A DNA stretch of 32,000 nucleotides from positions 1,080,001 to 1,112,000 of the forward strand of contig OZ245768.1 in assembly GCA_965227835.1 (NCBI GenBank), given 5' to 3'. The translations under genes and the position numbers were made by a program. Under the pieces are notes generated by a model that worked only from the letters and a program-made list of their open reading frames with translations, did not search any database and was not told where the DNA came from. This document shows positions 1-32,000 of this stretch, one piece after another. This DNA comes from Candidatus Saccharimonadota bacterium. GTDB taxonomy: Bacteria; Patescibacteriota; Gracilibacteria; BD1-5; UBA6164. Position 1 is the stretch's first letter. Each line of letters opens with the position of its first letter.

Positions 1-2
1 AT

Positions 3-356
3 ATAGGAAAAAATACTTCAATATGACCAAATACATATATAAATTGAACAAATTCTATTTGAAATAATTGTGAAATATGATCAAATAATGAAATTAAAAA
101 TAGCTATATATGAAATAATACCAAAATATCTAGTTCAAGCCATATATCAGATTCTATAGTATGAAACAATATAGAAATAAAATGAGGATTTATAACAGGA
201 AATACTAGAAATGATGACGGAAATATATCAGTATATATAAAATGAGAATTTAAAGATACTTGATTAAAAAATTTTTGATGTATTATTTGAGATAATTATA
301 AAAACTGAGTTAATTTCAGCTCTCAACCAGGAGAGATTTTAGAAATAAAAAAATAA
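3..356 (+). CDS. Hexapeptide-repeat (left-handed beta-helix) transferase, C-terminal fragment; 5' end lies off-window
   Basis: The frame is open from the window edge to TAA 354-356 only if 12 in-frame TGA are sense codons. With TGA=Gly it reads IGKNTSIGPNTYINGTNSIGNNCEIGSNNEIKNSYIGNNTKI..., the [LIV]-G-x4 hexad periodicity of GlmU-like LbH domains. Confidence 0.55.
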
Positions 357-366
357 ATATTTTTTT

Positions 367-1281
367 CTACTCCAACTCTTTTTCAATATCATCTAGTTTT
401 TCTTTACCCCTTTTATAAGCATAATACCATATAGCTACTTTTAATGCCTCAAGAACTCAAGTTAAATAACCCAAAAATAATATAAAACCTATAAAAACAA
501 CAACTATTATTATAAGAGTAAGAGTCTTTAGGATTTGAGTTGTTACAAATCATATAGCAATCATCATAATAATAGGAAATATAAGAAAAACTATAAAATT
601 AAATATAACCCTTATATTTAAAATAAACATCAAAAAATAAAGCTTAAAAGTATTAACCAAATTTATAGTAGCAATCTTTGAAGATTTTCATATAGAATCA
701 AAAACCTTACCATTTTCAAGCATTATTATATATTTACTATAAGAAAGAAACACATTTATAAATACTGAAAATAAAAATATAGCTAAAAATATATAGCTTA
801 TTTCTTTTATATACTGAAAATCAAAAAACCTCAAAATAAATAAATATCAATTCAAAATAGATAAAAATTTAAATTCTGAAAATAAGTTATTATATTTAAA
901 AAGTGGTAAAAATTTATACAGACCTATACTAACTGATTCTGATACTTCTAAATCTCAATCAACATCCTTTTTTGATATATATTTTATCAAAGCACCTTCA
1001 AAAATAGGTATAATTATTATATACAGTAGTATAAAAGCAAGAGCAAAAGCTATGGACTCTATAACATAAGTAGAATGTATAAAATTTATTAATTTATCAA
1101 GGATTTCTTCTCTTCTATCTGTTAATATTAAATATGTATATAAAGACTGGTATACAAGTATAGTAGTCAAAAGAATTATAGATAAAATCCCCGGAATAAA
1201 CTGCATTTTCTTTATTCTACCATCATCTTTTACTAGGTTCCAAGCAGGTATTACAATATCTTTTTTTATGTCTATTTTCAT
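367..1281 (-). CDS. Polytopic membrane protein, function unknown (304 aa)
   Basis: The track ORF 955-1281 continues through TGA 955-957 and four more TGA to TAG 367-369, in frame (915 nt). It has several long hydrophobic segments (ILSIILLTTILVY, IAFALAFILLYIIIIPIF, IFLAIFLFSVFINVFL, LIIIVVVFIGFILFLGYL). I recognised no family. Confidence 0.55.
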
Positions 1282-1783: not shown

Positions 1784-4057
1784 TTAAAATAAATTACCAA
1801 CCAAGAATTTAAAAAAACCTAAAAAGCTCTTAGTATCTTTATCAACTATTTTCTCTTTTAAAATATATGATTTTGATAATGGATCAAATCTATAAGAGTC
1901 AGAAGGGATTAATTCTTCCAACTCATATCATTCTATATTTTTTATCACTAAATTTGAATAATAAGGAGAATATAAAGGCTTAAAAACAGCTTCCTTTTGA
2001 AGAACACCAACTATAGCTTTTTGTAACTCAATCATTTTATCTTTAGTCAAAAGACTAGATTTAAGATCTTCAAGTATATTATCTAAATCACTATTTTTTA
2101 TCTTGGATAAGTTCTTCCCTTCTCTTATTTGTCAGGAATAAAAATATTTAGATATGTTAAAATTGAAATACCCTAAATTTATACCTGCTAATAACATATC
2201 ATAATTTTCTTCATCATTTCATACTTTTTTTGTAATATTCAAAAGAGTTTCAGCTAAAATTTCAACCTTTATTCAAGATTCCTCTAAAACATTTGATATC
2301 ATAGAAGCAACATCTTCTGCTTGTTTGTTACCACTTATATAAGAAAGATTTAAAGAATAAGGGCTAAAATCCTTGTTATAATAGAACCTATCATCAAGCT
2401 CAGAAATTAGATTCTTTTTAATCAAATTTTCTTGATTTATCACAACTTCATTTTCTTTTTTTACTTGAGCTTTTTTAAGCTCTAAAAGCTCCTTTTCTTC
2501 TTCTATTTTTTCTTCTACCAATCTAGCAACTAGATCTGCTTCCCACTTCTCTAAGGTTTGTCTATCCTTATTATAAAATATATTTATACTTTCTTTCAAA
2601 GATTTCCTTCAATTCTCTACAAAATATATATCGTATTTATTCTCTCAAACCTTTATATTTCATATACCAGGAGATATTTTGTAATAAAATTTACCAACTA
2701 AAGGACTATATCTAGTAAGTTTATAATCATTTATATAAACCAAAGATACATTTTTATTAGTTTCTCATTCAAGTGTAATAGTAGGATTTGTAATATAGTT
2801 ATATTTATCAACCCAATCCGGACTTAAAATTATTTTTGATTTACTATTATAATTATCCTTTGTTATAGAATTTTTTATCTCTGTTATATTTATCTCTAGA
2901 ATATCTTCATCTTTTTTTATCTCAACTTCATCAGAATAGGTATTTATATCTTTATCTAGATCTACAAGACCTTTTAAATAGTAATCTTTTTTATAGTATC
3001 ATATACTATTCATCATTTCATCTATAGATGATTTTCATAGAAATGTATCAAGTTCTACTTCATTTAAAAAAGGTGATTTTATGGATTTATATGAGTTTTC
3101 TCATATTTTTTTTAATACATCTTCCCTGTTTATTTTTTCTAAAATATAGTTTCTTATATTAGGGTATTTTACCTTATCTTTGTTTATAAAAATACCTACA
3201 TATTGGGGTAAAATATAACTATATTTTTTCAATTTAGGTATAGAATTTCATATCAAATTTTTCTTATCACCAAATATATTTATACTATCTTTTTGTTGCA
3301 GTAGTGTAGTATAATCTTTGTAAAATTTGAGAATTATATTTTCTATATAAACAGGATTTCTTGAATAAAATTCATTTTTTTCTAAAAATATTTTTCTAAA
3401 TCAAACTGTATCATCAGAATCTACTTTTGAGATTTTATATTTTCAAGAGTAAATTCAATTAATAGGGGAAAAGTTACCATTAATATTTTCAATATCTATC
3501 TGTTCTACCACATTTTTTGGCAATATTTTTTGAAAAAATATATTTAATATATTTACATCATTTCATTTTGTTTGAAAAATTATACTGGATTTTTTAGGTA
3601 TTATTTCCACTTTTTCCAAAATAGATTTCATAATAGGATTTGCATCCGTTTGCTTGAGTATATCATAGGTAGCAACTATGTCTTCTATTTCTATATCATC
3701 TCATGAAGACCATTTCACATTGTTATCTAAAAAACACTCAATTCTAGATAAATCTCATATATCACACCTAGTAAGATCTCAAACTATTTTTCACTGAGCT
3801 ATATCATAAGTTAAAAGACTCCTATAAAGAATATGATTTATATATGAATTATGATCATTGTTTTGATATTTAAGAGGATTTAAGTCAGGAAAATCTCAAA
3901 CAAAGCTTTCAGATATAGTTCATCATTTTTGAGCAATCTCTTTACTATCATAATATATATAATTGTATATTAGATGAGATAAACTAAGAAACAAAAAAAC
4001 AACACTTATAAAAAATAAGTATTTTTTAAGTTTTTTTATTGCATATATTTTCTCCAT
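1784..4057 (-). CDS. ABC transporter substrate-binding protein, family 5 (peptide/nickel type), 757 aa
   Basis: ATG at 4055-4057 to TAA at 1784-1786. I checked every in-frame triplet across 2274 nt and found no TAA/TAG, only TGA. It has an N-terminal signal/anchor (KKYLFFISVVFLFLSL). SBP_bac_5-like motifs are present: VKWSSGDDIEIEDIVATYDIL, NPVYIENIILKF, and YDMLLAGINLGYF near the C-terminus. It contains the track fragment 2273-2599 in frame. Confidence 0.7.
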
Positions 4058-4163: not shown

Positions 4164-4373
4164 TTACAAAGTTATAAAAAGCAAAATACCATTAAGAGTA
4201 AAAATAACAGCCAATACTATACTAATATTTTGCAATATTTTTTCTCATCCTCTTTTACTCACTTCTCACATATCTCCACTCATAGATGAGATATTTAGAG
4301 TTACACTTTTATTTTGTAAAAGCACAACTATAGTAAGTAATATAGACAATATAATTTGTATGTTTAAAAGCAT
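4164..4373 (-). CDS. secG: Preprotein translocase subunit SecG (69 aa)
   Basis: MLLNIQIILSILLTIVVLLQNKS...SKRGGEKILQNISIVLAVIFTLNGILLFITL. It has two TM helices, the VLLQ motif and the RGxE..L..T..LA..F pattern typical of SecG, plus two in-frame TGA=Gly. Confidence 0.6.
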
Positions 4374-4376
4374 ATT

Positions 4377-4799
4377 TTATTTCTTAAAAAATAATAAAGA
4401 GTAAATTATGTTTAATATAGTAAATATTATAACCGCAATAACAAATTCTACTGTTCAATTTATGTCATATCATATTCAGTCTATAAGCAGTAAATCTGTC
4501 AAAATATAATCAAGGAGAAATAGTATAATACCATTTATAAAAAATACAACCAGACCGAAAAATAAAAAAAACAGAGGAATAGATAATATTTTTAATACAG
4601 GTTTAACAGTTATGTTTATTAAACCAAGTATTATTCCTCATAAAAGATATGTTTTCCAAGCTTCTATACTATTATAAGCACAATCAAGACATCAAAGTTT
4701 TATTCAAGATTCTAAATTTTTTAAATCATTTGCTCATAAAAAATAAGCAATAATAAAAAGTATTGAAGCATTTATTAATATGGATAAAAGTATTTTCAT
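4377..4799 (-). CDS. Phage-holin-family-4 / YvlD-like small membrane protein (140 aa)
   Basis: LLGGIILGLINITVKPVLKILSIPLFFLFFGLVVFFINGIILFLLDYIL resembles the PF04020 (Phage_holin_4_2) core. There are 4 TM segments. Its stop lies 4 nt upstream of the secG start. Confidence 0.5.
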
Positions 4800-4920: not shown

Positions 4921-5352
4921 CTAAATTTTTTTTATAAAACAATTATTATCTTTTATAAATTTTTCTGATTCGTCTCAAATATTATGTTTAAATTCTTCTC
5001 TGTAAAAAATATTTTTTATTCAAGATGATATAATATTTTTTGTACATTCATAACAAGGTTTGTGTGTACAATAAATACTAGCTCACTCTATCCTAACACC
5101 ATTTCTAGCTGACCATAGCAAAGCATTCATTTCAGCATGAATTTCATATTTTGAGGACCATTCATGATGTAAAGTTCTATCTTTTCATTTCATATAATCA
5201 TTACAATTCACATATCCACTAGGTGTTCAATTATATCATGTAGAAAGTATTCTGTTGTCCTTGACTATCAAAGCTCAAACTTTTATAGATATACATTTAG
5301 ATCATTTAGCTATCTCATAGGCTATATTTATAAAGTTTTCATTATCAAGCAT
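4921..5352 (-). CDS. dCMP (deoxycytidylate) deaminase, ComEB/CDA family (143 aa)
   Basis: The zinc-site motifs HAEMNAL and PCYECTKNI are present, along with LSTGYNGTPSG. In-frame TGA codons fall on the conserved Gly of GYNG. Confidence 0.8.
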
Positions 5353-5364: not shown

Positions 5365-5772
5365 TTAATTAATTGATCAAGTTCAAACTATTTCTTGTAA
5401 GCCATCTCATACTTCTTTAAGATCCTCTATAACATCTTTGGCTTTTTCAATCTTTTCTCAAGCATCTTCTATAAATTCTTTTGTTTGTTCATATTTTTCT
5501 TCCAAATCTTTTGCTGTCTTTCTAATATCGTCTATATCTTCTTTCAAGTTGTTTACTGCATCTTTAGCTCAAGAATAAGCTTCTTTGATTTCATCTTCTG
5601 TAGGAACATTGGTAGATAAATCTCCAAGCTTTTCTTTAAACTCCAATACTTCTTTGTTTATATGTCATATTCACAAAGTATCAAAAATTTTTTCTGCAAT
5701 GGATGGCTTTGTAAAAAGTAAAAATACATATAAACCTATAAGAAGAAGAAAAAACCAAATAATTTTTTTCAT
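5365..5772 (-). CDS. Small N-terminally anchored or secreted coiled-coil protein (135 aa)
   Basis: MKKIIWFFLLLIGLYVFLLF signal/anchor, followed by a charged heptad-like sequence (KEDIDDIRKTAKDLEEKYEQTKEFIEDAGEKIEKAKDVIEDLKE). The frame is open only with TGA as a sense codon. Confidence 0.45.
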
Positions 5773-6085: not shown

Positions 6086-7006
6086 ATGACAAACGAAAAA
6101 AAAGATATCTTTGATATTTTTGAAGATATAAAACAGGAAGAAAAAGAAGTAAATATAGATTTTTCTTATCAAACAGAAAATATAAATTATAATACATACA
6201 GCTTCAATTATAAAATAAAAAAACAAATAAAAGCATTAGTAATATTAAAAAACTTATTGAAATATATTTCTACAAGCTTTTTGATATTTGCTGTTTTAAT
6301 TTTAACTACAAACTACTCAGCATATATAGAATTGCTTAAAAGTGATCTATATTCAGATAAAATACAAAAAGAATCAAGTTCTCTTATAAATTCGGTAGAA
6401 GCTTCAAAAATAAAATCCAGTATACAAGAAAAAGAAGAAATAAAAAAAAGAGTAGATGAAGAAATATCAAAATCAAAAAAATCAAAATATTCTTTAAAAA
6501 ACTTATCCCTTGAGACAAACAAGGAAAAACCAAAATTAGACATAGAGATAACACCATATGAAAACAGAATAATAATACCTAAAATCACAAAAAATATACC
6601 TGTATTGGACCTAAAGCAAAAAAGTGTATCTTGAGAGAAAGAGCTTGAAGATATTTTTATGAAAGAGCTTGAAGATTGAGTAGTTAGATATCCCGGTAGT
6701 TCGAAACCTGGAAAAAATTGAAATACATTTATTTTTGGACATTCATCAAACTATCCTTGGATAAAATGAGATTACAATGATGTTTTTGTAAATTTAAATA
6801 AACTTGAATATCAAGATGAGGTCATACTTTATTATGAACAAGAAAAATACACTTACAAAATAAAGGAAAAAAAAGTTATAAAACCAGGGCAAACTGATAT
6901 TTTAAAAAGGAATAAAAACAAAGATGAAATAACATTAATGACTTGTTGGCCTATTGGTACGACTCTTAACAGGTTAATAGTAATATGAGAAAGGGTTGAA
7001 ATATAG
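6086..7006 (+). CDS. Sortase-family transpeptidase (306 aa)
   Basis: The track ORF 6086-6634 continues through TGA to TAG 7004-7006. It has an N-terminal TM segment (STSFLIFAVLILTT), a catalytic His (FIFGHSS), the TLxTC motif (ITLMTCWPIGT) and a downstream Arg (LNRLIVIGE). Confidence 0.75.
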
Positions 7007-7023: not shown

Positions 7024-7296
7024 ATGATAGAAATAAACTACACATACAATTCAGTTGAAAAAATATTTAATGATGTAATACTGATAAAAGATTTTGATTT
7101 GATTTGATATTCAATACTTATTTCATTTTTAATTTTTTTCTTTATTAGTGTTACATATATACTACCTACTTTGTATATTTTTAAAGAAGAATATATAAAA
7201 AACAGAGAGAAAAAATCAAAAAAACTCCTTTTAAAACAAATAGTTATGCAAAAGGAGCTAGAAGATGAAATACTTAAAGAAGTTAAAAAGCATTAA
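7024..7296 (+). CDS. Small single-pass membrane protein (90 aa)
   Basis: ATG at 7024 to TAA at 7294-7296, with one TGA. It has a TM segment (ILISFLIFFFISVTYILPTLYIF) and then a Lys/Glu-rich tail. It lies 18 nt downstream of the sortase gene. Confidence 0.4.
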
Positions 7297-7329: not shown

Positions 7330-7405
7330 TGGAGCCATCAACGAGACTTGAACTCGTGACCTCTCCCTTACCATGGGAGTGCTCTACCAGCTGAGCTATG
7401 ATGGC
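7330..7405 (-). tRNA. tRNA-Thr (anticodon GGU), CCA encoded
   Basis: The reverse complement, GCCATCA-TA-GCTC-AGCTGGTA-GAGC-A-CTCCC-ATGGTAA-GGGAG-AGGTC-ACGAG-TTCAAGT-CTCGT-TGATGGC-T-CCA, folds as a canonical cloverleaf. The anticodon-loop positions 34-36 read GGT. Confidence 0.9.
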
Positions 7406-7501: not shown

Positions 7502-7774
7502 CTAAACTACAGAAACATATTTTTCTTTATAAATTCTACCATCAAATCTAGTCCTGTTTTTTTCAGTAAAAACTACATTTCATTCTTTAGTAGCAAATAA
7601 GGTAAAATCATGTCCTTGTCATACACCATCTCAAGGCCAAAATTTATTACCTTTTTGTCTAACAATAATATTTCATGCTATAGCTTTTTGTCCTCAAAAT
7701 AGTTTAACACCAAGTCTTTTGGCTTTACTATCTCTACCATTATTGGTGGATCATTGGGCTTTTTTGTGAGCCAT
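7502..7774 (-). CDS. rpmA: 50S ribosomal protein L27
   Basis: [61 protein letters not shown] matches L27 nearly position for position against E. coli ([28 protein letters not shown]...). TGA sits on the conserved Gly residues. Confidence 0.9.
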
Positions 7775-8154: not shown

Positions 8155-8586
8155 CTACCTAGCAAACCTAGCAAAAGCCTTATTGGCTTCAGCCATTTTG
8201 TAAACTTCCATTTTCTTTTTTATAGAATCTCCAGTTTCATTTGCAGCATCTATCAATTCTCAAGCAAGAAGTACGGGAAAACTAGCACCTTTTTTCTTTC
8301 TAGCTGCATCAAGTATCCATCTAGATGCAAGAAAAAGCTGTCTTTTAGTTTTAACTTCTTGTGGTACTTGATATATAGAACCTCATACTCTTCTAGGTCT
8401 AACTTCTATTTTTGGCATAACATTTTCCAAAGCTCTGATAAATATCTCTTTTGGTTTTTTCTGTCATTTAGATTTTATAACTTCAAAAGTTTCTTGCATA
8501 AGGTTATTAGCTAAAGATTTTTTACCATTTAGCATCACATAATTCGTAAACTTTGCCAAAAGGCTTTCAATTTTTGCATTTTCCAT
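8155..8586 (-). CDS. rpsG: 30S ribosomal protein S7 (143 aa; lacks the usual Arg-rich N-terminal tail)
   Basis: [18 protein letters not shown]...[18 protein letters not shown]...[12 protein letters not shown]...[15 protein letters not shown] aligns with S7 throughout. An in-frame TAA at 8623-8625 upstream rules out an N-terminal extension. Confidence 0.9.
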
Positions 8587-9000: not shown

Positions 9001-9417
9001 CTACTTAGGTTTTTTAGAGCCATATTTAGATCTACCTTGCTTTCTGTTAGCTACACCTTCACAATCCAAAACTCATCTAACTATATGATATCTAACTCAA
9101 GGTAAATCTTTTACCCTACCTCATTTAATAGCTACAACAGAGTGTTCTTGTAAATTATGACCTTCTCAGCCAATATAAGCATTAACTTCATATCAATTAG
9201 TAAGCCTAACTCTTGCAACTTTTCTAAGAGCAGAATTAGGTTTTTTAGGTGTTGCTGTATAAACCTTTACACAAACTCCTCTTTTTTGAGGACACCCTCA
9301 ATCTATAGCAACTTGTCTTTCTTTCAAAGAATTTTTAGTTACTTGCAAAGCTGGAGATTTACTCTTTTTGTGGGGAGTCTTTCTTTTTCTTTTTAGTAAT
9401 TGGTTAATAGTTGGCAT
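9001..9417 (-). CDS. rpsL: 30S ribosomal protein S12
   Basis: [60 protein letters not shown] is near-identical to E. coli S12. Six in-frame TGA all fall on Gly (for example 9166-9168, 9097-9099, 9073-9075). Confidence 0.95.
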
Positions 9418-9464: not shown

Positions 9465-9863
9465 TTACCTTTTAGACCATTGCATTCATTTTCTAGCTTT
9501 ATGTTTTCATGGTTTTTTCCTTTCAACTTTTCTTGAATCTCTTGTAAGAAATCAAGCTTCTTTTAATATAGGCCTAAGTGATTCATCTTTAGATACAAGT
9601 GCTCTTGAAATACCTAATCTAATAGCTTGTGCTTGAGCTGAATCTCAAGATCAAGAAACTTTAATATCCAAGTAAAAGTTGTCTTTTTGTTTAGTAAGTT
9701 TTAAAGGAGAATAAACAACATCAAATAAATCTGTTCTTGAAATATATTCACTTATATTTCTTCCATTTATTATATCACTTCATTTTCATTCAAACATTTT
9801 TACTTGTGCTGAAGCTGTTTTTCTCTTTCAAATAGAATATGTATATTTAGCTGTTTTAGCCAT
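9465..9863 (-). CDS. rpsI: 30S ribosomal protein S9
   Basis: GKRKTASAQVKMFEGKG...GGDSAQAQAIRLGISRALV...[33 protein letters not shown] carries the S9 hallmarks, including the C-terminal ...SKR. Confidence 0.9.
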
Positions 9864-9877: not shown

Positions 9878-10312
9878 TTATAATTGTATAGTAGTAGGTT
9901 TTTGTGCAACAAAACAGTGAGTCTCTCACTCAAAACCTTTTAGTCTAGAAATCATAGATTTTCTTAGTTTATTTTTTGGAAGCATACCCGAAACAGCCAA
10001 TTCTAAAGCTTTTAGTGGTTTTTTAACTAACATATCTTCCAAAGAAATTTGTTTAAGTCATCATAAATATCAACTATGTCTATAATAAATCTTATCTGTA
10101 AGTTTCTTTCAAGTTACATTGAATTTATTAGCATTTATGACAACAACATAATCTCCATTATCTACATACGGAGCAAAGTCTGGTTTATTTTTACCTTTAA
10201 GAAAAATTGCTATTTTGGATGCAAGTCTACCTAAAGTTTGTCATTTTGCATCTATAATATACCATTTTCTTTCATTAGATTTAATTTGTTTAGGCATTAT
10301 AGTTTTCATCAT
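9878..10312 (-). CDS. rplM: 50S ribosomal protein L13
   Basis: [48 protein letters not shown]...YYRHSGYLGGLK is the canonical L13 sequence. Confidence 0.9.
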
Positions 10313-10327: not shown

Positions 10328-10690
10328 TTAAATTAATTCTAGCTTAACAAGTTTAGCATTATCTCATACTCTGTATTTTATAGGTATGATTCTTGTAAAT
10401 CAAGAAGTTTTTTTATCTTTATACTTAGGTGCTACATTCCTAAAAAGCTCTAAAGATGAGTCCTTTGTATAAATTATACTATTGGAAAATCTTATAGCAT
10501 TCATTTCATCTTTCGTATTAACAACATTTATCAACTTATCAATTATAGGTATGATAGATTTTGCTCTTTTTTCTGTAGTTTTTATAGATTTATGAAGAAA
10601 AAAAGAGGTTACTAAATTTCTCTTCATAGCATCTCTATGAGCAAAACTTTTATTGTTGAATTTCAAGTATTTTCTAACTTTATGTCTCAT
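10328..10690 (-). CDS. rplQ: 50S ribosomal protein L17
   Basis: The track ORF 10400-10690 (MRHKVRKYLKFNNKSFAHRDAMKRNLVTSFFLHKSIKTTEKRAK) continues through TGA 10400-10402 into GFTRIIPIKYRVGDNAKLVKLELI, ending at TAA 10328-10330. Confidence 0.9.
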
Positions 10691-10733: not shown

Positions 10734-11714
10734 TTAATCATCTCAAAGTAATCTAAGCCCTCTATCTGCCAAAGCAGCTCTAATTTCAGTCATAGCTTTC
10801 TTTCAAAATCATTTTATAGAAGAAAGTTTTGTTTCTGTACATTTAGTCAATTGTTCAACAGAAAGTACAGATCAATTTATAAGAGCATTTAGTGTTCTAG
10901 GGGATAATCCCATAATTTCAATAGGAGTATATGTTTCTTTTTCTAGTTCTACTTTTATCTCTTCTTTTTCTTTTTTAAGTAAGGTTCTTACATCTGATAT
11001 AAAGTTTCATCATACTTGTAATCATTCTTCATTGAATAGTCAAAAATAAGATTTAAGCATATCAGAGGAAAACTTAAGAGCTTCTACAGGAGTAATACTG
11101 GAGTTTGTGGATATTTCAATTATAAGTTTTTCTAGGTTTGATATATCTCAACTTCTGGTTTTTTCTACAAAATATTTTACATTGGAAACAGGAGAAAAAT
11201 TTGCATCAACAAGTATAATATTAGGATCTTCTTCTACAGCTTTCAAATCTTCAATACTTTTGTACCCTACATTTTTTTCTACTCTTATATCTATATCAAT
11301 TTCTAATCAATCTTTATCAATTTCTGTGATATATAAATCTTTATTAAGGATTTCTATACCTCAAGAAAGCTTTATATCTGAAGCTGTAACAACTCAAGCT
11401 TTCTTTTTATTTAATTTAATCCATTCAATACCTTCTTCTTTTTTGTCTAATATTAAGTCTTTTAAATTTAAAATTATATCAAACATACTGTCTTTTATCC
11501 CTGGTAAGGTTGAATACTCATGAGATACTCATTTTATTTTTACTCATGTTATCTTCGTACCAGGAAGACTAGAAAGAAGGACTCTTCTTAAAGAGTTTCA
11601 AACTGTTACACCATAACCTCTAGGAAGAGGTCAAACTTCAAACGATGACACATTACTTTCATTATCTTTTTGAGAGATTTTAGGAACTCATATTAGTTCA
11701 TGGATGATATGCAT
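10734..11714 (-). CDS. rpoA: DNA-directed RNA polymerase subunit alpha
   Basis: N-terminal domain: [28 protein letters not shown]. C-terminal domain: IEIMGLSPRTLNALINGSVLSVEQL...IKGFGKKAMTEIRAAL. It occupies the canonical position between rpsD and rplQ. Confidence 0.9.
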
Positions 11715-11749: not shown

Positions 11750-12373
11750 CTATTTTGAGTAAAATTCAACAATTTTTTGTATATCTATAATAGCTTCAAA
11801 ATCTTCCTGTGTAGGCTCAGATTCTATAGTAATTTTCAATTTATTAGCATCAACTGATATCCACTTAGAATTTGTAATCTTACCTTTATTAGATTTGGCA
11901 AATTCTGATAATTCAGAGGCAAGACTTTTGTAAAGATTACTTTCTCTAACTCTATCCCTTAGCTCAATAGTATCTCCTGGTTTTAAATTTATGGAAGGGA
12001 CTGTAACTTTGACTCCATTTAATTTAAAATGAGCATGGCTAGCAAACTGCCTAGCTTGCATCCTAGTTCTAGCAAAATTAGCCCTGTATATAACATTATC
12101 TAGTCTAAGCTCTAGTAGTTTTAGCATTTTTTCTCAAGTAGTACCAGAACTTCTAGATTTTTGAGCTTTTTTAAAGTATGATGCAAACTGCTTTTCGGAT
12201 AAAGCAAACATTCTTTTTGCTAGTTGTTTTTTTCTCAGTTGAGAACCAAATTCACTAGATTTTCTAGATCTAGGTAGAGTCTTTTTTGATTTGCTAAGAT
12301 CATATTTTTCTGTTCAAAAAAGATTAATTCATTCTCTTCTACAGAGTTTTTTCTTTGGTCAGGTATATCTCAT
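11750..12373 (-). CDS. rpsD: 30S ribosomal protein S4
   Basis: The track ORF 11750-12127 (S4 domain: LELRLDNVIYRANFARTRMQARQFASHAHFKLNG) extends upstream through TGA to MRYTGPKKKLCRREGINLFG. Confidence 0.9.
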
Positions 12374-12839: not shown

Positions 12840-13208
12840 TTATTTTTTCTTACCTGCAATTGCTACAGATTTTCATTTTCTTGTCCTAGCATTGGTTTTT
12901 GTGGATTGTCATCTTACAGGAAGCCTATTTCTATGCCTAATTCATCTGTATGATCTAATTTCTTGAAGTCTTTTTATATTTGAAGTTACAAGCCTTCTTA
13001 GGTCTCATTCAACAGTATGATTAGCTTTTATTTCATCTCTTATTAAATCAAGTTGTTCTTCTGAAAGGGTTTCAATTTTGAGAGTTTTTTCTATTCAAAC
13101 TTTTTCCAATATTTTAGACGAATTACTTCTTCCTATACCATATATATAAGTTAAAGCGATTTCTACATGTTTACCTTTTGGTAAATTAACTCAAGCGATT
13201 CTAGCCAT
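12840..13208 (-). CDS. rpsM: 30S ribosomal protein S13
   Basis: [28 protein letters not shown]...[27 protein letters not shown] is the canonical S13 sequence. Confidence 0.9.
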
Positions 13209-18773: not shown

Positions 18774-19646
18774 ATGAAAAAAAACAAAAAATGATTGTCC
18801 TTAGTCGTTGCTATATCTATGGCATTACTTATGTGACTTTTGGCAATATATATTTTGGAGTATATGATACCTTTTTCCAAAAACACAAAAGGTATAGAAA
18901 ATAGTGTTTGAGCATATTATCTGGCAGACTCTGCAATAGAAGATGCCCTTTATTCTATGAGCTGACAAACACTAGGATATAAAAAAACAGATTCACTATC
19001 AGGAAATAGAGATTATTCTATAGCTATGTCAGCAAATTGAAATACCTTGCCACCTTCTGGAGAATGAAATAGTGAGTTTGATAAAGATTACAATATATTG
19101 AGATTATGAGACCCTATTCAAATAGAAGTTTGAAGTGGGGCAATTACTAGTAGTTCTAATTTTAAAATATATATCAAAGTACCAGACCTAAATTCAGCAA
19201 GTGAACAAGATGAGACATTAAGTTGAGCAAGTTTGAAGATAGCAAATTGGCAATTATCCTCAAGTAGTGATGTATTAAATGCAAGTGGTAGTCAAATAAC
19301 AGCTACAGAAATAAATAATGATTGAAGTAGTTGAATAAGTTTATGAAATAAAGTTTGATCCAATTTAGCAAATGATTCAAAAACTTTTTCTAATTTCTAT
19401 TGATCAGAGTGTAATGGTTCATGAGAAGTATGTAAACTAAAAATTTCAGTAATTAACAAACTTGAATTAACAAACGGAACAAATGTGCCTTATTTAGAAT
19501 GGAAGATAGTAAATGGTAGTAGTATACCTCTAAGATATACAATAATAGACACAATTTGAAGATCCTATGGTTTTAGAAAAATCCTAAAAGTGAAAGTCCC
19601 TCAACAAACTGTAAATGAAGCTTTTGATTTTACCGTATTTCAGTAA
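18774..19646 (+). CDS. PilX/ComGG-like minor pilin candidate (290 aa)
   Basis: It starts 2 nt after the previous stop. The N-terminus, MKKNKKG/LSLVVAISMALLMGLLAIYILEY, is a hydrophobic pilin-like helix without Glu at +5. That feature and the position after a minor pilin fit PilX-type proteins. Confidence 0.5.
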
Positions 19647-19882: not shown

Positions 19883-20122
19883 ATGTTTAAAACTATAAAA
19901 GATATAGACAGTAAGTTCAGCAAAAAAATAAGCAATTTTAGATTTACTCCTCTTAAATTAATTATAATTCTAGGATCAACATCTGTATTTTTTACTTGTT
20001 GTTATCTACTTAGAGGATTTTTAGTTGAGAATCCTGCTATATTTCTTGTTGTAGTAATTTTGTTCTATGCTATCACTTCATTTTTTAGAGATCTTTTAAA
20101 AGATGATTTAAAAATAGGTTAA
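19883..20122 (+). CDS. Small two-TM membrane protein (79 aa)
   Basis: It is a standard-code ORF in the track and contains no TGA. GAGGT lies 6 nt upstream of the ATG. The TM segments are LIIILGSTSVFFTCCYLL and AIFLVVVILFYAITSFF. It is followed by a strong terminator. Confidence 0.5.
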   Translation: MFKTIKDIDSKFSKKISNFRFTPLKLIIILGSTSVFFTCCYLLRGFLVENPAIFLVVVILFYAITSFFRDLLKDDLKIG

Positions 20123-20584: not shown

Positions 20585-22480
20585 ATGTCTAAAGATATAA
20601 ATAAAATAAATAATTGATGAGATGCTCCCAAAGAAGACAAAGTATTGTTTGAGTTAATTAAAACTAAACAAACTATTTGAAATATACTAGAAGGAGATAA
20701 TGGAAGCTTATTGTCATTAGAGAATTTGAAAATAAATAAAGAAACTTGAGAAATTATAGGTTGAATTGCAAAAAGCTTGCAACAGGAAAAATTTCCATTT
20801 TGGAAACAAGAAGATAAATATGTACTAATAAAAGCAAAGTGAAAATATAACTATATTGATATTAAAAGTATTGATAGGGATAAAAAAACATGAGAAATAC
20901 TAATTTTTTCTATAAAAAATAACACCCCTATTGAAAGAAATTATTTTTATAAAGAAGCAGGTAAATATAAGAAGCTTAAAATAGAATGAATTGATAGCAT
21001 AGAAAAAGCATGTAGTATAAAATTAAATGAACAAACAGGAGAAATAGTAGGATGACGCTTTGAAGAATCTATTAATAGCTCTTGAGTTTTCATCAAAAAA
21101 GATAATAAATTTGTTAAATTAGAAATAGAATGAGTTGGTAATATTAGGAATATACATAGTTTAAAAATAGATGAAGAAACTTGAGAAATAATAGATTGAG
21201 TAGTAATATGTAAAAACCTCAAAACATTAGCATTTCAAAAACAATGAAATAAGTTTATTAAATTAGAGATAGAATGAATTAACCATACCATGGATATAGA
21301 AAGTTTAAAAATAGATGAAAAAACATGAGAAATATTAAGATGAATAGCCCTAATAAATGGATTTGACACTTGAAACTTTATGCCTTTTTACAGAAAAAAT
21401 GGTAAACTGACCAAATTAGAAATAGAAGGAATTGATGAAATTTTAGGTATGCATGATTTAAAAGTAGATGATGAAACCTGAGAGGTACTAGCTTGAATTG
21501 CAGTAGATAGAAATCAAGGACAAACTGCATTTGAAAAACAATGAAATAAATATGTAAAAATAAAAATAGAAGTAGAATGAGTTGGTGAGATAAAATGTAA
21601 GTATGATCTAGCTACAAATGACGAAAATTGAGAGTTATTAGCTTGAACTGGTCTAGATAAAAAATGATACCAAATACTATTTTATAAAAAATGAGATAAA
21701 TATGAAAAATTAAAAATAGAATGAATTAATAATGTAGAAGGAATAGAAACTATAGAAATGGACGAAGCAAAAAGAGAATTAATAAGTTGAGTATTAATAA
21801 TAGAAAATTGCAATCTTGTAGCTTTTTTAAAAGATAATGATAAATATATTAAGTTAGAGATAGAATGAATTAATGAAATTAAAAATATATATAATATAAC
21901 TTCAAATAAAGAAACAGGAGAGATATTTAGCTGAATAGCTGAATATGGAGAACTTAAAACTATACCTTTTTTCAAAAAAGATAATAAATTTATTAGGTTA
22001 GAAGTAGAAGGAATTGATGAAATACAGGATACAAATAACTTAAAAATAGATGATGAAACTTGAGAGGTTTTAACCTGAATTGCAATATATAAAGACTATT
22101 ATGAAATACCATTTTTTAAAGAATGAAGTAAATATGTTAAATTGAAGATAAAATGAGTTGATGAAATAATAGATACACCTATCAATACATTAAAAATAAA
22201 CAATAAAACTTGAGAAATATTATTTTGATTTGCGGTGTGTGAAAACTGATATGAAATACCATTTTATAAAAACTGAAATGAATATGTTAAATTGGAAGTA
22301 AAATGAGTTGACGAAATAGTAAATACGAAAAATTTAGAAATAGACTATGAAGCTTGAGAGTTATTAACTTGAGTATTAACAGATGGAATTTGAAACGAAA
22401 TATGATTTTATAAAAGATGAGGTGAATATGTAGTTAAAAAAGACAAAGAATACGATTTTGTAGAAGAGGATGTTTGGTAG
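20585..22480 (+). CDS. Tandem-repeat protein, about 12 repeats of about 48 aa (631 aa), function unknown
   Basis: ATG at 20585 to TAG at 22478-22480, in frame (1896 nt), open only with TGA as a sense codon. The repeat consensus is about K[YF]VKLEIEG[IV]DEIxxxxxLKIDxETGE[IV]LxGIAxxxxxxxxxF[FY]KKxN. There is no signal peptide. Confidence 0.75.
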
Positions 22481-22893: not shown

Positions 22894-23265
22894 ATGACAA
22901 ACTCCGAATTAATAAAAAAAATACAAGAATCTTTCTTGCAAAAAGACAGAGAAGAAATAAGAACATGAATGGAAGTGGAAGTACATCAAATAATAAAAGA
23001 ATGAAATAAAGAGAGAATACAAAAGTTTAAAGGCCTTGTTATAAAGGTTGCTGGAAAATCTCCACTAGAAAAAACCTTAACTATTAGAAGAAAAATAGGT
23101 GCTTTTGGTGTAGAGAAAATATTTACCCTTCACTCACCAAATATAAAACAAATAGATATTATAAGACAATTTAAAGTTAGAAGAAAATCTATAAAATTTA
23201 TCAGAAATCTTACTGGTAAGGCAGCAAGACTTAAAGAAGTTAAAAAAAATACCAAAAAGAAATAA
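22894..23265 (+). CDS. rplS: 50S ribosomal protein L19
   Basis: IRTGMEVEVHQIIKEGNKERIQKFKGLVIKVAG....TLTIRRKIGAFGVEKIFTLHSPNIKQIDIIR is the canonical L19 sequence. Confidence 0.9.
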
Positions 23266-23280: not shown

Positions 23281-24738
23281 ATGGAATTTAAAGATTTGTC
23301 TTTGATAGAAATAATAGAAAAAATAAAATCTGGAAAAACGACAAGCCAAGAAGTATTTGAATATTTTATAGCTAGAATAGAAAAATATGACTCAAAAGTA
23401 AAATCTTTTAATTTTGTAAACAAAGACTGACTAAATAAAAACTCAAAGTGAAGTATACTTGAAGGTGTACCTATTGCTATGAAAGACATATTTTGCGAAA
23501 AAAATATACCAACCACATGAGCTTCTCAAATACTAAAAGACTTCAAACCTCCTTATAATGCCACTGTAGTTGAAAGATTACTTGAGTCTTGAATGAGTTC
23601 TATATGAAAAGTAAATATGGATGAATTTGCTATGTGATCAAGCAGTGAAAATTCATCTTTTAAAAATACCCTAAATCCTTGGTGAGAAAACAGAATCCCT
23701 GGTTGATCAAGTTCCTGATCCGCATCTTGTGTATCAGCCTGATTAGCTCCAGCTTCTTTTTGAACAGATACATGATGAAGTATTAGACAACCAGCAAGTA
23801 TGTGTGGAGTAGTATGATTTAAACCTAGCTATTGAAGAAATTCTAGATATGGAATATCAGCTATGGCCTCAAGTTTGGATTGTCCAGGAACTATAACAAA
23901 AACAGTTAGAGATGCTGCTTTTTTATATGAAATAACAAACGGTGAAGATAAAAAGGAAAATACAAGTATAGAATGAAAAGATAGAATAAATCCTAAGATA
24001 TGGTCTAGAAAAGATTTTAAATGAATGAAAGTTTGAATACCAAAGCAATTCTTCGAAGAATGACTAGATAAAGGAGTAAGAGAAACTATAGAAAAAGCTA
24101 TAAAAGATATTGAAGAGTTATGAGCAGAAATTGTTGATATTGAACTACCTATGACCAAATATGCTATAGCTACATATTACATAATTATGTTTGCTGAGAT
24201 GTCTACAAATTTAGCTAGACTTGATTGAATAAGATACTGAAAAAAATCAGAAAAAAACTATTCCAGTTTAGAAGAACTTTTTATAAATAACAGAAGTGAA
24301 GGACTTTGAAAAGAAACTAAAAGAAGAACAATACTGGGTTCTTATGTACTGTCTGCTTGATATTATGAAGCATATTATAAAAAAGCAGCAAAAATAAGAA
24401 CCCTTATAATAAAAGATTTCAAAAAAGCTTTTGAGTCTTGCGATGTAATTGTATGACCAGTATCTCCCAGTGTATCATGGAAAGTATGAGAAAAACAAAA
24501 CGATCCTCTAAAAATGTATTTATCAGACTCTTATACTATCCCTGCATCCCTAGCTTGACTACCTGCAATGTCTGTCCCAGCATGATTTGCATTATCTAGC
24601 GATGAACAAAAAGAAAAACTCCCTGTATGATTACAAATAATTGCCCCTCAATTCCAAGAACAAAAACTTTTTGAATTTGCAGGAATTTATGAAAAAATAA
24701 ATAATCATTGAAAGCTATGTCCCCCAGGTTTTGAGTAA
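23281..24738 (+). CDS. gatA: Glutamyl-tRNA(Gln) amidotransferase subunit A
   Basis: The amidase signature reads [10 protein letters not shown]...[75 protein letters not shown]. The Gly-rich signature is largely TGA-encoded (for example 23704-23706 and 23716-23718). Confidence 0.9.
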
Positions 24739-24814: not shown

Positions 24815-25960
24815 ATGGTAAATTTATTCAAATGAGGACCACAGGTATCTGAAAATTTCTCAGATTCTCTAGAAACAAAAGATCCTCTAACTAATTTAGA
24901 AGGAGAACAGATCACACCAGATGGTTGATGAATGTATGGAAAATTTGAAAGACCTAAAACTCCAACTGATCCTTTAGAAGATGTTGATGAAAGTGGTTGA
25001 ATATTAGATGTTTTGGATGAAGAAGAACCAAATAATGGGAATAGTGGAAATGAAATAGCAGATCCTTTTGGAAGTATTGATGATAGTAGTTTATCATCTA
25101 ATAATTTAAATGGAGCTGAAAATTTAGACAATTCAAACAACAAAAACGAAATAACTGATCCTTTTGGAGATATTGAAAACAATGATTGAGCATTAAATCA
25201 ATCAGATTGAACTGAAGTTTTAAATAATTCAAATGGTATAACACAAACAACAGAAGATTTATTGGCTTCCACTAATTTAGACGGACTTAGTGAAGAAAAA
25301 TTATTAGAAAGACAAGAAAATCTAAAAAACAAATCAAAAAATCTAGATACACTAATAAGAGATATTGAGACTATAAAAAATCTAGATTCTTTGTATAGTT
25401 TGGATATAGATTTAGCTACAGAGGAAAAAAGTTTTAACTCTGAGGTTTTAAATAAAATTTGATGAAATTATCTAAAAACACCTCTAGAAAATTGAGAGTT
25501 TGATTTAGAAGCTGATTTTAGTATGGCTATACTTGAAACAAAAGCTGAAATAATAGATGAATGTGCTAATATAAAAATGGATAGCGAGACTTACAAAGTT
25601 GCTATTAGAAATATAGAATCTGGAGATATAAAAAGACAGCTAGAATGAATAGAAAGTCTTTATTATTTAGCTTATTCAAATGAGTGAAAATTATGAAAAG
25701 CTAGTTTAGACAAATTTAAAAATAAGAAAAAACAAAGGTTAATAGATGAAGGAAGAAAGATAGATGAGAAATTACAATTAGCAATAAATCAAAAAAACGA
25801 AAAAGAATTACTAAATAAAAGAAAGCAGGAAATTATAATGGAATTATCTGAAATGACTTGAATAAAAGATTGAGAAAAAGTAGAATGATGAGATGTGTTT
25901 ACAGCAAGTATGAATGAGCAAAATGAAAGAGGAAGTTTAGAAAAAGAAGGGCAGGCTTAG
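24815..25960 (+). CDS. Acidic protein with a disordered N-terminal half and a coiled-coil C-terminal half (381 aa), unknown function
   Basis: ATG at 24815 to TAG at 25958-25960, in frame with the track fragment 25262-25462. An internal duplicated motif, NEI[AT]DPFG[SD]I, lies within 25049-25180. The C-terminal half is Lys/Glu-rich. There is no signal peptide. Confidence 0.6.
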
Positions 25961-26105: not shown

Positions 26106-28757
26106 TTACCCTTCAACATAACTAAAATTCACTTCATCTATTCAAAAAACATTTGAAAGAGAATAATAAGTTTCACTATCTATAAACCAATCTGCTTTTA
26201 TATTTTCGTTACTAGATTTTAAATTCAAAACTCCACCTGATTGATCCAAACTAAACTCAATAGATTCTGAAATTTCTTCGGGAAAATATAGCTTAATTAT
26301 TTCTATTTTATCACTTGCTGATATAGAAGATGTATCTTGCCTTACTTTTTCCATATCTAATTCTCATTCCACCATATATTCATCATAACTTAAATCTTCA
26401 CTACCCATTGCATAAGAAAATCCTGAAATTCAAATCAAAGCAATAATTGCTGCAATTCTTTTCTTTCAAGAAAACTTACTAGTCTTAGAGATAGCATCTC
26501 TTAAAGCTTCTCTTGGACTTGGCATTACTCTAGCAGTTTTGTAAAGTTTATGTCAAATTTCAGCTGTTCCTCTTCATATATCATAAATATCCATAATTGG
26601 TTTACCCAAGTATTTAATCTTGGATTTAAGTCATTTTTCTTTAATTAAGAAATATCAATCCAAAGCAAGAAATCATCATCATAAGACAAGCTGTTCTAAA
26701 TTATCAACTTTTACACCATCATTCCAATCAATTCATGAATTTCAAACAAGTGCTATAGGTCATACAATAGGTATAAGATATGGAACTTGGTTCAATAATT
26801 CTTCTAAAAATGGTTTTTCAGAATGAGCAGAAAATCACACAATGGATATAATGGGAAGTTTATTAAAAAATCATTTAATTAGCTCTGGTGATGATTGAGC
26901 TAATACATTCATTTTTTTAAAAAAATTTTGTGCTCAAGCTTTATCTTGAAATTCAAAAACTAGTTTATCAGATAAATGTGCAACTTTTGAAACAGAAAGT
27001 GTTTCTCTAAATTTAGAAAAAACTCAAAATCATCTATCCAATACATTTTGCTGATGTTTTACAGCATTTTCTATAGCTCTATTTAGCTCTTGCATAGCAG
27101 AACTTTTTCAAAATCAAAATCCTACTTCTTTAATAAGATGATTTTTATTTGCTTGAAATTTTATTTCAAAATCTTCTGTAAAACCTGATCATACTCTTTG
27201 AGAAGCTAGTTTAGATATATCATCAAGATCACCATAACTATTTATATTAAAATTATTTCACATATAATTATTTATAAAAGAAGCATTTTTTCAGCTCATT
27301 TGTCTTTTAAATCAATCTATATCTCATGAACTTTCAATAATATGCATCATTCTATAGTTATCTTTGAGTTTACCAATTACAGCTTCAACTTTTGTAATAT
27401 AAATATTATCTGCTACTCAAGTAATTGCTTGTTCAAGCCTTGCTATATTTCTAAACTGTTGTTCCGGTCATTTTAAAATACCATCCTTAAATAGTTTTAA
27501 TCAATCTACTCATGTATTTGATGGTAAAACAACATCAAGTCAGACTCTGGCAATACCCGCTGATAAAGAACCAACAGCACTGAAAAATATTCATCATTTT
27601 CTATATAATAATCATATAAGAGCTGCTCTTTTATCTTCATCCATATTGTTAAGTTTTTCTATTAGTGAGTCAGTATCTATATTTCAAGATAATCATACTC
27701 AAGGTATGGCTATATTTATAATATCATTAGAACTTCAAACGAAATCCCAAGCCATATCAAAAACACTTATAATTCAACTTCACACTAAATCCAAACCAAA
27801 ACCTACAGAACTTCATAAAAGAGGGTAAATTTCTTTTATTTTTAGATTTTTGTCCTCAAGTATTTCATCCAGTTTACTGCTGGTTAAATCATCTGATAAA
27901 AAATGTTTTTGTATTAGTAACTTCAAAGAAGCTTGTTGGTCTTCATCCAAAGATGTATCAAAATTTCCTTCTATTAAAGATTTTATATCATCAAAATATT
28001 TCTGTCCTAAGTTTTCAAAAACTTGATTAAAATCTAGACTGGCAAAATCCTCTTTTAATTCTCATATAGTTATTCATTCTCAACTTTTAATTTTATTATG
28101 GTAATGTGTAATTTTTGCCTGTGTAAAAATAGTTTCATTATCAAGGATAATATCTACTTGATCTTCATCAAGGTTAGGAAAATATCCTAAAATACTAGAT
28201 CTTATACTATCTTTGACAGATTTTACTTCATCGTGATCTATTAATTCTTGTAATTTTTCTTGGGAATTTATCCCATTAATCATCTCATATCAAGTTTTTA
28301 AGCCTAAAAATCCCAAAATAGCCATTCAAATGGGTTTTTTAAACATTGAGTAAAAAGTGTTTCAAAGAGATGATTCACCTCCTTTAGTATTCATAAAATC
28401 TAAAGCAAAATCAAAGATATATCAACCAAATCAAAAAAACTTCTTACTTGCTACTTGTCTTAATTCCTTTATTTGTTCAGGATTATTTCCTTCTAATATA
28501 TCTGAAATATTTGTCTCTCTGTTTGAATTTCAAGACACAAGAGGTTTTTCAACTAAAGATTTAAGGTACAGGTAATGATCTTCTATATTTGATTGTAAAT
28601 TTTCTAGCCTTGAATTTATCTCCATTTCAAGTTCTTCTTTATTTGAAATTTCTTCTAATCTTTGTCTTATTTCTTCCCAGTTATATCATTCCTGTTCAAA
28701 TCTTTGCTGAATTTCTACTTGTTTTCACCCAAAGATGTCTAAATTTCTTGAACTCAT
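26106..28757 (-). CDS. Large membrane protein, unknown family (883 aa)
   Basis: I enumerated every in-frame triplet from 26106 to 28781. The only stops are TAA at 26106-26108 and the upstream TAA at 28779-28781. The first ATG is at 28755-28757. The gene absorbs track fragments 26142-26354 and 28080-28283. It has an N-terminal coiled coil (EIQQRFEQEGYNWEEIRQRLEEISNKEELEMEINSRLENLQ) and then at least 7 Gly-rich hydrophobic segments (for example LLGSSVGFGLDLVGSGIISVF, GGIFFSAVGSLSAGIARVGL, LVLGGGFLALDGYFLI, RIAAIIALIGISGFSYAMG). Confidence 0.7.
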
Positions 28758-28791
28758 TTTTTTTAATTTAATATTTATTTAAAATAATTCT

Positions 28792-31700
28792 CTACACTAT
28801 CTGATCAATAAATCAATCTTCTTTAATTCAAAGTTTTTCTAGTGCTGTATGAAGTCAAGCCATACTTATTATTCATAGCTTATACATACCATAAATATTT
28901 CAAGCTATAGCTCAAATATTTACTAAATTATCCATAGATAACAAATCTTTATTTTCGTCAGCAATCGAAGAAGCAATATTTACAATTTCATCATCAGACA
29001 ATAAAAAAGCTATTCATCCTGATACACCTTTATAGAAATTAGGATTTTTCTTCAAATGAGGTCAAATAAAAGGTAGTTTTTCTAAGTATGATCCTAAATT
29101 TGCATAATGTAGTTTTCAGTCTACCCATAATTTTGCTGCTTTTAGTTTATCCAGTGATGAATTAAATCATCTTTTGAAGTCCACATTTTTAAAAGATGCA
29201 GATAATCTAGGAATAGAAGATATAGCAGGATTAGAAGCTATAAAAAGCCTTTCATCCATCTTAACAGCTAAAGCTTCTATAATTTTTTCATCTTTTATAT
29301 TTACTTGTTGCCCATTAAATTTTGTTGTTATAGCTCAATTGTCATTAATAGAAACATTGTAGGTTTTACCATCTACTTCAACCTCTATATCTTTTCAAAC
29401 AAAATGCTTTTTAAATTTTGACATCTCAATATTGAAAAACTTTATTTCTTCAAGCACTCAATCTTTGTCTCATATAGCTTGTTTTAACTTTGTTCTACGC
29501 ATAGAAGCAGATATACTTCATACTCATCATATCAAAGCCAAAGGAGCCCAAGCAAGATTGTTTACAAAAGATGCACCTAGGTCATAATCATGTTCAAATA
29601 ACATAGCCCTTAGAGCTTCTCATCACATTCATATCACAGCTACATCTCAAGCCATTTCAGTTCATACTACTCATAGAGCAGTAAGCCTCGAGGTGTTTCT
29701 TTTGAGCATAAATTTACTAAGCATATTTATACCTTTAGCTGCTCATCCTTGAAGTCATAGAATTGCTGTTTCTCCAGCAAATTCTCAAATTCAATTACTT
29801 TCTCATCTGGCTATAGTATTTAGAGTAGTTCATGCTACAGCACCTCATCAAATAATAGCTCATCAAACTAATACTCAAGGAGCAAAAAATATAGTAGCTG
29901 CTGTTGCTCAAACCATTGTTACACCTCATCATACATTTTGTAATATATTATCTGTTGTTTCTTCTTCAAAATCAAAAAATCATATACCTCTGTTGTCTTT
30001 TAATATTGATATTGCCCTTTTTACCAAAGGATCTCTACTGTTACTATTTATTTCTATGAAATGTTCCAAGTCTATATCAAATTTTTTAATTTCTTTTTCA
30101 AAGTTAGGGTCATTTAAATCTGGAAATTTAGGACATCAATCAATATCTTGAAGTATTCAAAGTGCCATAATACTTGATAAGTTATAGTTTCTCAAATGAT
30201 CATTATCTAGTTCTCAAACTCATCATGAGTAATATTCAGCTAAAAATATATAGGTTTCTCTTAATTTACTAGATAATTCAGGGTTATTTTGCTCTCTTAT
30301 TCTAAGTTCAGAAATTATTATAAGTATATCTTCATACTGTGACTCTAATTCTTTGGAGTAATGTTCAATTGTATCTTTTTTATTCCAGACAATTCAAAGC
30401 ATATTTTCTAAATCCTCTGTCTTTTGGGCTATAATTTTAAAGTTTTCAAGTCTAAAGCTTAGACCATTTATAAGTTGAGAGTCAGAAACATTTTCTGGAG
30501 ATTGTGTTATTTGTTCTAAAATACTATCGTCTTCTACATCTATATCAGGAGTAGTTGTATCAAGAGTATTTGGAATATTGTTGTCTTGTGGCAATACTGG
30601 AGCTTGTTCACCTAAAGAAATTTGATTTTGTGAAATGTTTGCATCTTGCACATTAGTTTCAGTTCAAGATAAAGAAAGTATTACATCAGAAACTGTGCTT
30701 CTTCCATCACCTTTATTGTTAACTAAATATTGTATAAATTTAGGTATATCTTCATCTGTTATTCATGCATTTTGTAAAGCTCTTTTTTCTGTATCATTAA
30801 GTAGGAGAGCATTTATAGTAGTTATATCATCTATAGAATCTATATATTTTCAAAAGAGTATGGTATTTGAAGAAAAAACAGATGTAAGAACAGAAATTTT
30901 ATCTCTTCACAAAGCCTCTGATCATCTATCCAAATCCATATCACTTATGGAAGAAGAAGCATTTTCTAAAACTCTACCTGAGTCTATACTGTTGCTTCAT
31001 AAATTTGCACTACTGCTTCATAGATTTGTAGTTATATTATTTATAGCATTACTTCTAACTCTAGTTTGTTCAGGTGTATTTGAAAATCAAGAGCTAAAAG
31101 TATCTGTAACTTTATCAGAGGCATGACTTAAAAGTTCTCATCATCATAAGAATAAAAAACCTAAGGTTAAAGGTATCCTAGTATACCATTTTTCTCATCA
31201 GGGTATTTGTCTATACATTTCTTTTGGTATACCAAAAATTAATGATAATGTTAAAAATAACATACCCATTGATTTCAACCCTCACTTATTTTTATCAAAC
31301 CATGATCACCAGTCTTCTTTTCATTCAAATACTGGTATCATTGATCAGAAAAATGTTTTTGATGCCCCAGTTGGAATATTTTGTTTAGGGTCAACATTTT
31401 CTAAAACTTCACTATCTTCAGTTTTGTCAAAAAAACTGTCCAGTTTTTCAAAAAATATGCTATAATCATTTGTTTCATTTCATGTGGGTGTAGATCTAAA
31501 CTCAGATAAAAAAGCCAAAAGACCTTTATCTTCTGGTGTTCATACAAAGTTAAGTCAAGATATATTGGTATTTTTGTTTAATACAGAGAGTATTTCTATT
31601 TGATCTTGGCTTGATATACCTTGCTTGAATGAATCATTTCTAAATTTTTCCAAAACTGTTCAGGCTTTCATTTCTATATATGTCTCTTTCCCAAGTATTC

Positions 31701-32000
31701 AGTCTTTTGATATATTGTGTTCTTCTTGATAGTTTTGAATAGCTTGTTTAAAATCTTCAAACACAAAAGGATCTTCTACTCCCAAAGTTTCTTTTGCTAG
31801 TCTCAAAGCCTCACTTCTAGATATACCTATTTTTTCAAGATTTGAGGAAGTTAGTTGCATTTCATGGTTTGAAAGTCTTTCTTGAGTTTCTTCTATAATA
31901 TCTTCTTGGGCATTATTTACAGCTTCTAATTCTCATGTTTCTGCTTGCTCTTGAGATTCTGGCCAAACTTGTACTGGTCTTACCAAGCCTATACTTCATT
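28792..32000 (-). CDS. Giant membrane-associated protein, unknown family, more than 1069 codons; 5' end probably off-window
   Basis: I enumerated every in-frame triplet from TAG 28792-28794 to the window edge (32000) and found no TAA/TAG. It absorbs the track fragment 30394-30651. It contains a PG_binding_1-like motif (FEDFKQAIQNYQEEHNISKDGILGKETYIEM, 31669-31761), TM pairs (MGMLFLTLSLIFGIP, LTLGFLFLGGG), an acidic Pro/Asp/Thr linker and a glycine-zipper hydrophobic block (GGGVTMVGATAATIFFAPGVLVGGAIIGGGAVAGTTL...ALIGGVGSISA, about 29480-29940). An internal start (for example ATG 31858-31860) cannot be excluded. Confidence 0.7.

Follow-up and report, generated by a model that had tools for sequence, protein, structure and literature searches.

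The 32,000-nucleotide (nt) stretch of contig OZ245768.1 analyzed here, referred to as the window, is almost certainly chromosomal DNA of a Gracilibacteria/BD1-5 bacterium of low GC (guanine plus cytosine) content in which genetic code 25 is in use. Of the 32 protein genes of the window, 30 contain UGA as a sense codon, standing for glycine (Gly) and not for tryptophan (Trp); UGA is the majority Gly codon, termination occurs only at UAA and UAG, and the other testable codons keep their standard meaning. This reading had been proposed in an earlier note made from the sequence alone.

The GC content of the window is 26.6%. With translation table 11, stop-to-stop frames reach at most 194 amino acids (aa), and the longest start-to-stop open reading frame (ORF), an antisense one, is of 190 aa, the same limit that the earlier note had reported for the table-11 six-frame track. 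With TAA and TAG as the only stops, 82.2% of the window is covered by 30 non-overlapping ORFs of 70 aa or more; rpmJ and secG were found in the gaps, giving a total of 32 protein genes and one transfer RNA (tRNA), tRNA-Thr, with about 83% of the window coding, close to the roughly 33 genes that had been anticipated with TGA read as Gly. The coding frames contain about 437-439 TGA triplets, corresponding to 5.0% of the codons, and the genes interrupted by them include those of essential ribosomal proteins; neither TAA nor TAG occurs in frame, even over stretches as long as 1068 codons, in line with the earlier statement that genes are broken only by TGA. When these genes are read in their two non-coding frames, 7-10% of the codons are TAA or TAG, so that frames of more than 1000 codons devoid of both are not random. 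The terminators of the 32 genes are TAA in 22 cases and TAG in 10, and the ends of the Pfam profile matches coincide with gene ends so defined.

The Pfam searches were run with TGA scored as X, so that its meaning was not prejudged. Most or all of the profile was covered across in-frame TGAs for S7, S12, S9, L13, L17, RpoA, S4, S11 and S13, and likewise for IF-1, L27, L19, GatA, the sortase, the AI-2E transporter and the dCMP deaminase, among others; the GatA profile was matched over positions 1-444 of 445. The ORFs first described as having 758, 632, 884 and more than 1069 codons correspond to proteins of 757, 631 and 883 aa plus a stop, and to one of at least 1068 aa that runs off the window. 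At the level of single triplets, positions 9166-9168, 9097-9099 and 9073-9075 of rpsL are all TGA on the minus strand, and positions 23704-23706 and 23716-23718 of gatA are both TGA on the plus strand, as reported; the protein motifs quoted with them are present, apart from a slip in infA, which reads LS-G-KMR here and not IS-G-KMR.

The amino acid encoded by TGA was assigned by comparison with related genomes. A scan of a genome collection with S7 recovered 80 related loci carrying the same ribosomal gene cluster, and 11 conserved genes, containing 77 TGA codons of the window, were aligned at the codon level; together with a sister strain (L081; ENA ERZ25074195, a contig about 95% identical), the comparison comprises 81 partial loci. 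Opposite the 77 TGA codons, the 80 loci have a GGN codon (Gly) 3179 times, TGA 1959 times, and TGG or Trp never. Trp itself is still encoded by TGG, as the earlier note had it, since 536 of the 537 cells facing TGG codons of the window contain Trp.

Some 20 relatives have a higher GC content, long ORFs under table 11 and few TGAs, if any, in these genes (0-5 per locus), and accordingly appear to be standard-code organisms. In these 20 relatives the cells at the 77 TGA columns contain Gly in 1211 cases out of 1401 and Trp in none, with Gly as the majority residue in 69 of the 77 columns. All codons of the window were then examined at columns at least 80% conserved in the standard-code relatives: the sole deviation was TGA, which matched Gly in 64 of the 68 conserved columns, while AGG corresponded to Arg (12/12), TGG to Trp (7/7) and ATA to Ile. 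At the level of single genes, five of the six TGAs of rpmA are Gly in all six high-GC standard-code relatives, and the 12 TGAs of rpsK are Gly in all four such relatives carrying the gene.

Comparisons with distant organisms gave the same picture. Five of the six TGA positions of S12 are Gly in PDB sequences from distant standard-code bacteria, Trp being found at none, and of the 29-30 aligned TGA positions of GatA, 20 are Gly in the Aquifex sequence, 23 in that of Pseudomonas and 22 in that of Staphylococcus, with no Trp. Within the window, three conserved Gly positions in the repeats of the 631-aa protein are written TGA 28 times and GGA four times, with no other alternation; between the window and the sister strain, 14 TGA/GGN swaps and no TGA/TGG swap were observed. 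Relatives, PDB sequences of S12 and GatA, internal repeats and sister strain thus all agree with the original claim that TGA falls on invariant Gly residues. The earlier note had also set beforehand, as the outcome that would speak against it, TGA columns aligning to Trp or to no conserved residue; Gly columns were found, and never Trp.

Amino acid composition points in the same direction. With TGA as Gly, 7.8% of the residues are Gly, as compared with an implausible 2.8% if TGA is not counted; Trp, which is 0.57% of the residues from TGG only, would rise to 5.6% if TGA encoded it. With 437 TGA against 243 GGN, TGA represents about 64% of the Gly codons when all genes are counted, and 61% when only the 11 conserved ones are.

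Two observations weigh against the assignment of UGA to Gly by code 25. In the standard-code relatives 8 of the 77 TGA columns are not Gly; these are variable or lineage-specific sites, as expected for any codon. Moreover, ARAGORN detected no tRNA with a UCA anticodon, whether in the window or among the 81 partial loci formed by the relatives and the sister strain. By analogy with the lineage, a dedicated tRNA-Gly(UCA) would decode UGA, the organism would have lost release factor 2 (RF2), and release factor 1 would be the only class-I factor terminating translation.

The lineage itself was approached by similarity and not by a tree, and on this basis the window appears to belong with Gracilibacteria/BD1-5 or Absconditabacterales. 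The S7 of the window has 65-84% identity to its counterparts in metagenome-assembled genomes (MAGs) labelled Candidatus Gracilibacteria, some of them deposited as 'Peribacteria' or 'Patescibacteria group', and GatA is 63-69% identical to the GatA of NCBI-named Gracilibacteria. Low-GC relatives share TGA at the same Gly columns.

Code 25 of Gracilibacteria/BD1-5 and Absconditabacteria/SR1 was reportedly described by Campbell and by Rinke in 2013. The meaning of UGA as Gly is established in both Gracilibacteria and Absconditabacteria, whose recoded members possess a tRNA-Gly(UCA) and no RF2, while related members that use the standard code retain RF2 (Shulgina and Eddy 2021, PMC8629427). Recoding has also been described in a BD1-5/SN-2 bacterium (Hanke et al. 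2014, PMC4032931), reportedly with proteomic detection of peptides that read through UGA as Gly, and the gTranslate preprint (2026) assigns table 25 to the GTDB class JAEDAM01 (orders Absconditabacterales and BD1-5) across hundreds of genomes, reporting likewise that tRNA-Gly(UCA) is present and RF2 absent in lineages with UGA as Gly. The earlier note restricted the known occurrence of table 25 to Absconditabacteria and Gracilibacteria, in agreement with PMC8629427 and with the preprint. Since the literature already assigns UGA to Gly in this lineage, the phenomenon is not new: both the alternative code and its use in this lineage are known, and the genome is already public. It is a textbook case of low novelty.

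The window resembles the code 25 genomes in its in-frame UGA at conserved Gly, its UAA- and UAG-only stops, its very low GC content and its Gracilibacteria-labelled closest relatives, as well as in a Patescibacteria-type gene content, with type IV pilin-like genes, a sortase and few metabolic genes. Nothing of substance differs from the code 25 relatives, and the share of TGA among the Gly codons of the window is within their range, which reaches 84%.

Code 4, used by Mycoplasmatales, Hodgkinia, Nasuia, Zinderia, Stammera and some Eggerthellaceae, presents a similar situation of a low-GC, reduced genome in which UGA has changed from stop to sense, and reading through TGA generates the same long ORFs; the amino acid differs, being Gly here and never Trp. 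A reading of UGA as Trp (table 4), known from Mycoplasmatales and from several endosymbionts of insects, is therefore able to account for the ORF structure as well as table 25 does, and at first sight it finds a further argument in the databases. Indeed, a public protein collection contains the exact GatA of the window (P0001) with Trp at all 30 TGA sites, and 98 of 121 stored GatA homologs have at least three Trp residues at the TGA columns, so that a naive alignment at the protein level would seem to favor Trp. However, Trp at all 30 positions indicates that the stored GatA was translated with table 4, and the database Trp is an effect of the translation table used by the pipeline: the remaining 23 hits have Gly at these columns, and the GatA of NCBI-named Gracilibacteria is among them. 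When codons are compared, TGG never stands opposite a TGA column, be it in the 80 loci, in the 20 standard-code relatives or in the sister strain; moreover, the PDB homologs have Gly at the TGA positions, and the Trp content given above for this reading would be required. UGA as Trp is thus very improbable and already refuted by the column counts. Even less probable is the standard code, with the TGAs representing pseudogenes, sequencing errors, selenocysteine or programmed read-through, which has nothing in its favor beyond table 11 being the default. It would have to explain hundreds of TGAs in nearly all genes, essential ribosomal proteins included, their position at conserved Gly columns common to dozens of independent MAGs (the 1959 TGA-TGA pairings), and the lack of in-frame TAA and TAG over as many as 1068 codons, given the frequency of 7-10% that these triplets reach in the other two frames; this explanation, too, is already refuted.

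The stored GatA bears on the practical side of the assignment to code 25. Table 4 is a common automatic fallback, and it produces full-length proteins in which about 5% of the residues are spurious Trp replacing Gly; such mistranslation harms homology searches, structure prediction and any test of codon reassignment that is aligned to these entries. It follows that the Trp outcome against which the earlier note had warned could be falsely triggered by alignment to table-4 entries; the artifact was avoided here by working with codons, with standard-code relatives and with PDB sequences. The claim that annotation with table 11 would miss essentially everything stands for table 11, which hides the genes, while a table-4 call does show them, with Trp in place of Gly. 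The value of the finding is practical, in that code 25 is essential for annotating the contig; the knowledge of genetic codes is unchanged.

A different possibility leaves code 25 in place and adds a second change to it, namely that CGG, and possibly CGA, no longer encodes Arg and is either unassigned or read as Trp. The window contains 2 CGN against 274 AGR codons among 8741, with neither CGA nor CGG, and the low-GC recoded relatives show the same avoidance of CGN, CGG being absent from their 11 conserved genes. At Trp44 of S11, which is TGG in the window (12671-12673) and Trp in all 72 other loci, the sister strain has CGG (697-699), and in a 382-aa protein a column that is Trp in 21 loci is CGG in five low-GC ones. 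CGG as Trp has been predicted computationally for some Gracilibacteria, and CGA/CGG as Trp has been reported in Absconditabacteria (Shulgina and Eddy 2021, PMC8629427); the S11 codon of the sister strain and the CGG codons of the five relatives are a hint at this predicted change. On the other side, the genes of the window, devoid of CGG, provide no direct test, and the S11 site is a single base in a contig of about 4.9x coverage, which could be an error. CGG stands at Arg columns in two recoded relatives of about 35% GC (L015 and L037) and at a Leu column in two loci. Pairings of CGG with Trp can also be mimicked by antisense shadow ORFs, which give spurious Leu and Trp matches, and the tabulation was accordingly restricted to ORFs not overlapped by a longer one. 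A second change of this kind is possible but rather unlikely on balance.

As to its course, it may be tentatively proposed that CGG, perhaps with CGA, was driven out of use and then recaptured as Trp in this sub-lineage. The window has in common with the lineages with CGA/CGG as Trp its low GC content and the near extinction of CGN, and its sister strain and the five relatives show CGG where Trp is conserved; in-frame CGG and CGA are absent from the window. If true, the bacterium would depart from the standard code twice, and table 25 would be exact in the window and not in the whole genome. Among the Ile codons of the window, ATA is the commonest (606, against 272 ATT and 38 ATC) and aligns to Ile, Val or Leu columns; its share in the low-GC relatives is similar, at 40-60%.

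The features of the window are listed in Table 1.

Table 1. Protein genes and tRNA gene of the window, with the number of TGA codons inside each gene
Feature	Position	Strand	In-frame TGA	Remarks
Left-handed beta-helix protein (hexapeptide-repeat, GlmU-like), C-terminal part	3..356	+	12	cut by window start; PF25084, PF24894
304-aa membrane protein	367..1281	-	5	no family match
757-aa extracellular solute-binding-like protein	1784..4057	-	23	SBP_bac_5
secG	4164..4373	-	2	69 aa; TAA stop
140-aa membrane protein	4377..4799	-	7	Phage_holin_4_2 family
dCMP/cytidine deaminase	4921..5352	-	8	143 aa
135-aa coiled-coil protein	5365..5772	-	7	signal anchor
Sortase	6086..7006	+	5	306 aa
90-aa membrane protein	7024..7296	+	1	
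tRNA-Thr(GGU)	7330..7405	-		sole tRNA in window
rpmA (L27)	7502..7774	-	6	
rpsG (S7)	8155..8586	-	3	
rpsL (S12)	9001..9417	-	6	
rpsI (S9)	9465..9863	-	8	
rplM (L13)	9878..10312	-	6	
rplQ (L17)	10328..10690	-	2	
rpoA	10734..11714	-	17	
rpsD (S4)	11750..12373	-	4	
rpsK (S11)	12410..12802	-	12	
rpsM (S13)	12840..13208	-	6	
rpmJ (L36)	13262..13375	-	none	37 aa
infA (IF-1)	13409..13639	-	7	
Type IV pilin-like protein	14329..15606	+	17	425 aa; N-terminal methylation motif, fibrinogen-C-like stretch
AI-2E family transporter	15635..16759	+	15	374 aa
Pilin-like protein	17623..18771	+	32	382 aa; N_methyl motif
290-aa protein	18774..19646	+	16	no family match
79-aa membrane protein	19883..20122	+	none	
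631-aa protein	20585..22480	+	44	about 12 tandem 48-aa repeats
rplS (L19)	22894..23265	+	2	
gatA	23281..24738	+	30	485 aa
Acidic 381-aa protein	24815..25960	+	16	no family match
883-aa protein	26106..28757	-	52	no family match
Protein of at least 1068 aa	28792..31998	-	68	N-terminus beyond window end; no significant family match

Between positions 7330 and 13639, on the minus strand, the genes follow the order infA-rpmJ-rpsM-rpsK-rpsD-rpoA-rplQ-rplM-rpsI-rpsL-rpsG-rpmA-tRNA-Thr, with rpsL-rpsG directly joined to rplM-rpsI and followed by rpmA. In many bacteria the place taken here by rpmA is occupied by fusA/tuf; the S12-S7-L27 arrangement is common to 77 related loci. A search with Rfam at the gathering threshold returned nothing besides the tRNA. 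A 47-mer of the window had no exact counterpart in the JGI metagenome contigs, and exact-protein look-ups for a TGA-free ORF, two table-11 fragments and P0001 gave no record.

The 425-, 382- and 290-aa proteins form a type IV pilin-like cluster, in which two genes have N-terminal methylation motifs; one of them contains the short fibrinogen-C-like stretch, and the second is very Gly-rich, with 32 TGA in 382 codons. The repeats of the 631-aa protein are 48-aa units, that is 144 nt, and the protein has no significant family match; its ortholog in the sister strain is of only 416 aa, so that the number of repeats differs from strain to strain. The two giant ORFs at the end of the window adjoin each other and contain Gly-rich hydrophobic segments, with no Pfam family; in the sister strain the gene caller splits each of them into two overlapping pieces.

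The intergenic regions contain a dispersed repeat of about 110-150 nt, present in five copies, four in the forward orientation (1405-1560, 7930-8085, 8758-8905 and 17330-17475) and one inverted (13780-13905). Its layout comprises a conserved TTCTGTTCTAT box, a GC-rich hairpin of the form CCCTCTCC-loop-GGAGAGGG, and then TTAGGGT/GAGGT-like units; the hairpin core was found in only 4 of the 80 related loci. Copies of this repeat account for the unusual length of the S12-S7 spacer (414 nt, against 42-256 in relatives) and of the S7-L27 spacer (380 nt, against 33-206). About 5-6 units of a tandem repeat with a 31-nt period lie in the divergent spacer between infA and the pilin gene (13984-14168). 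A 25-nt motif, TCAACAGAGGGCTTTAGCCCTTTGC, with a GGGCT/AGCCC inverted repeat, occurs at 13988, 14246, 22669 and 25989; its copies have 84-100% identity and lie in three intergenic regions, the infA/pilin spacer holding two of the copies.

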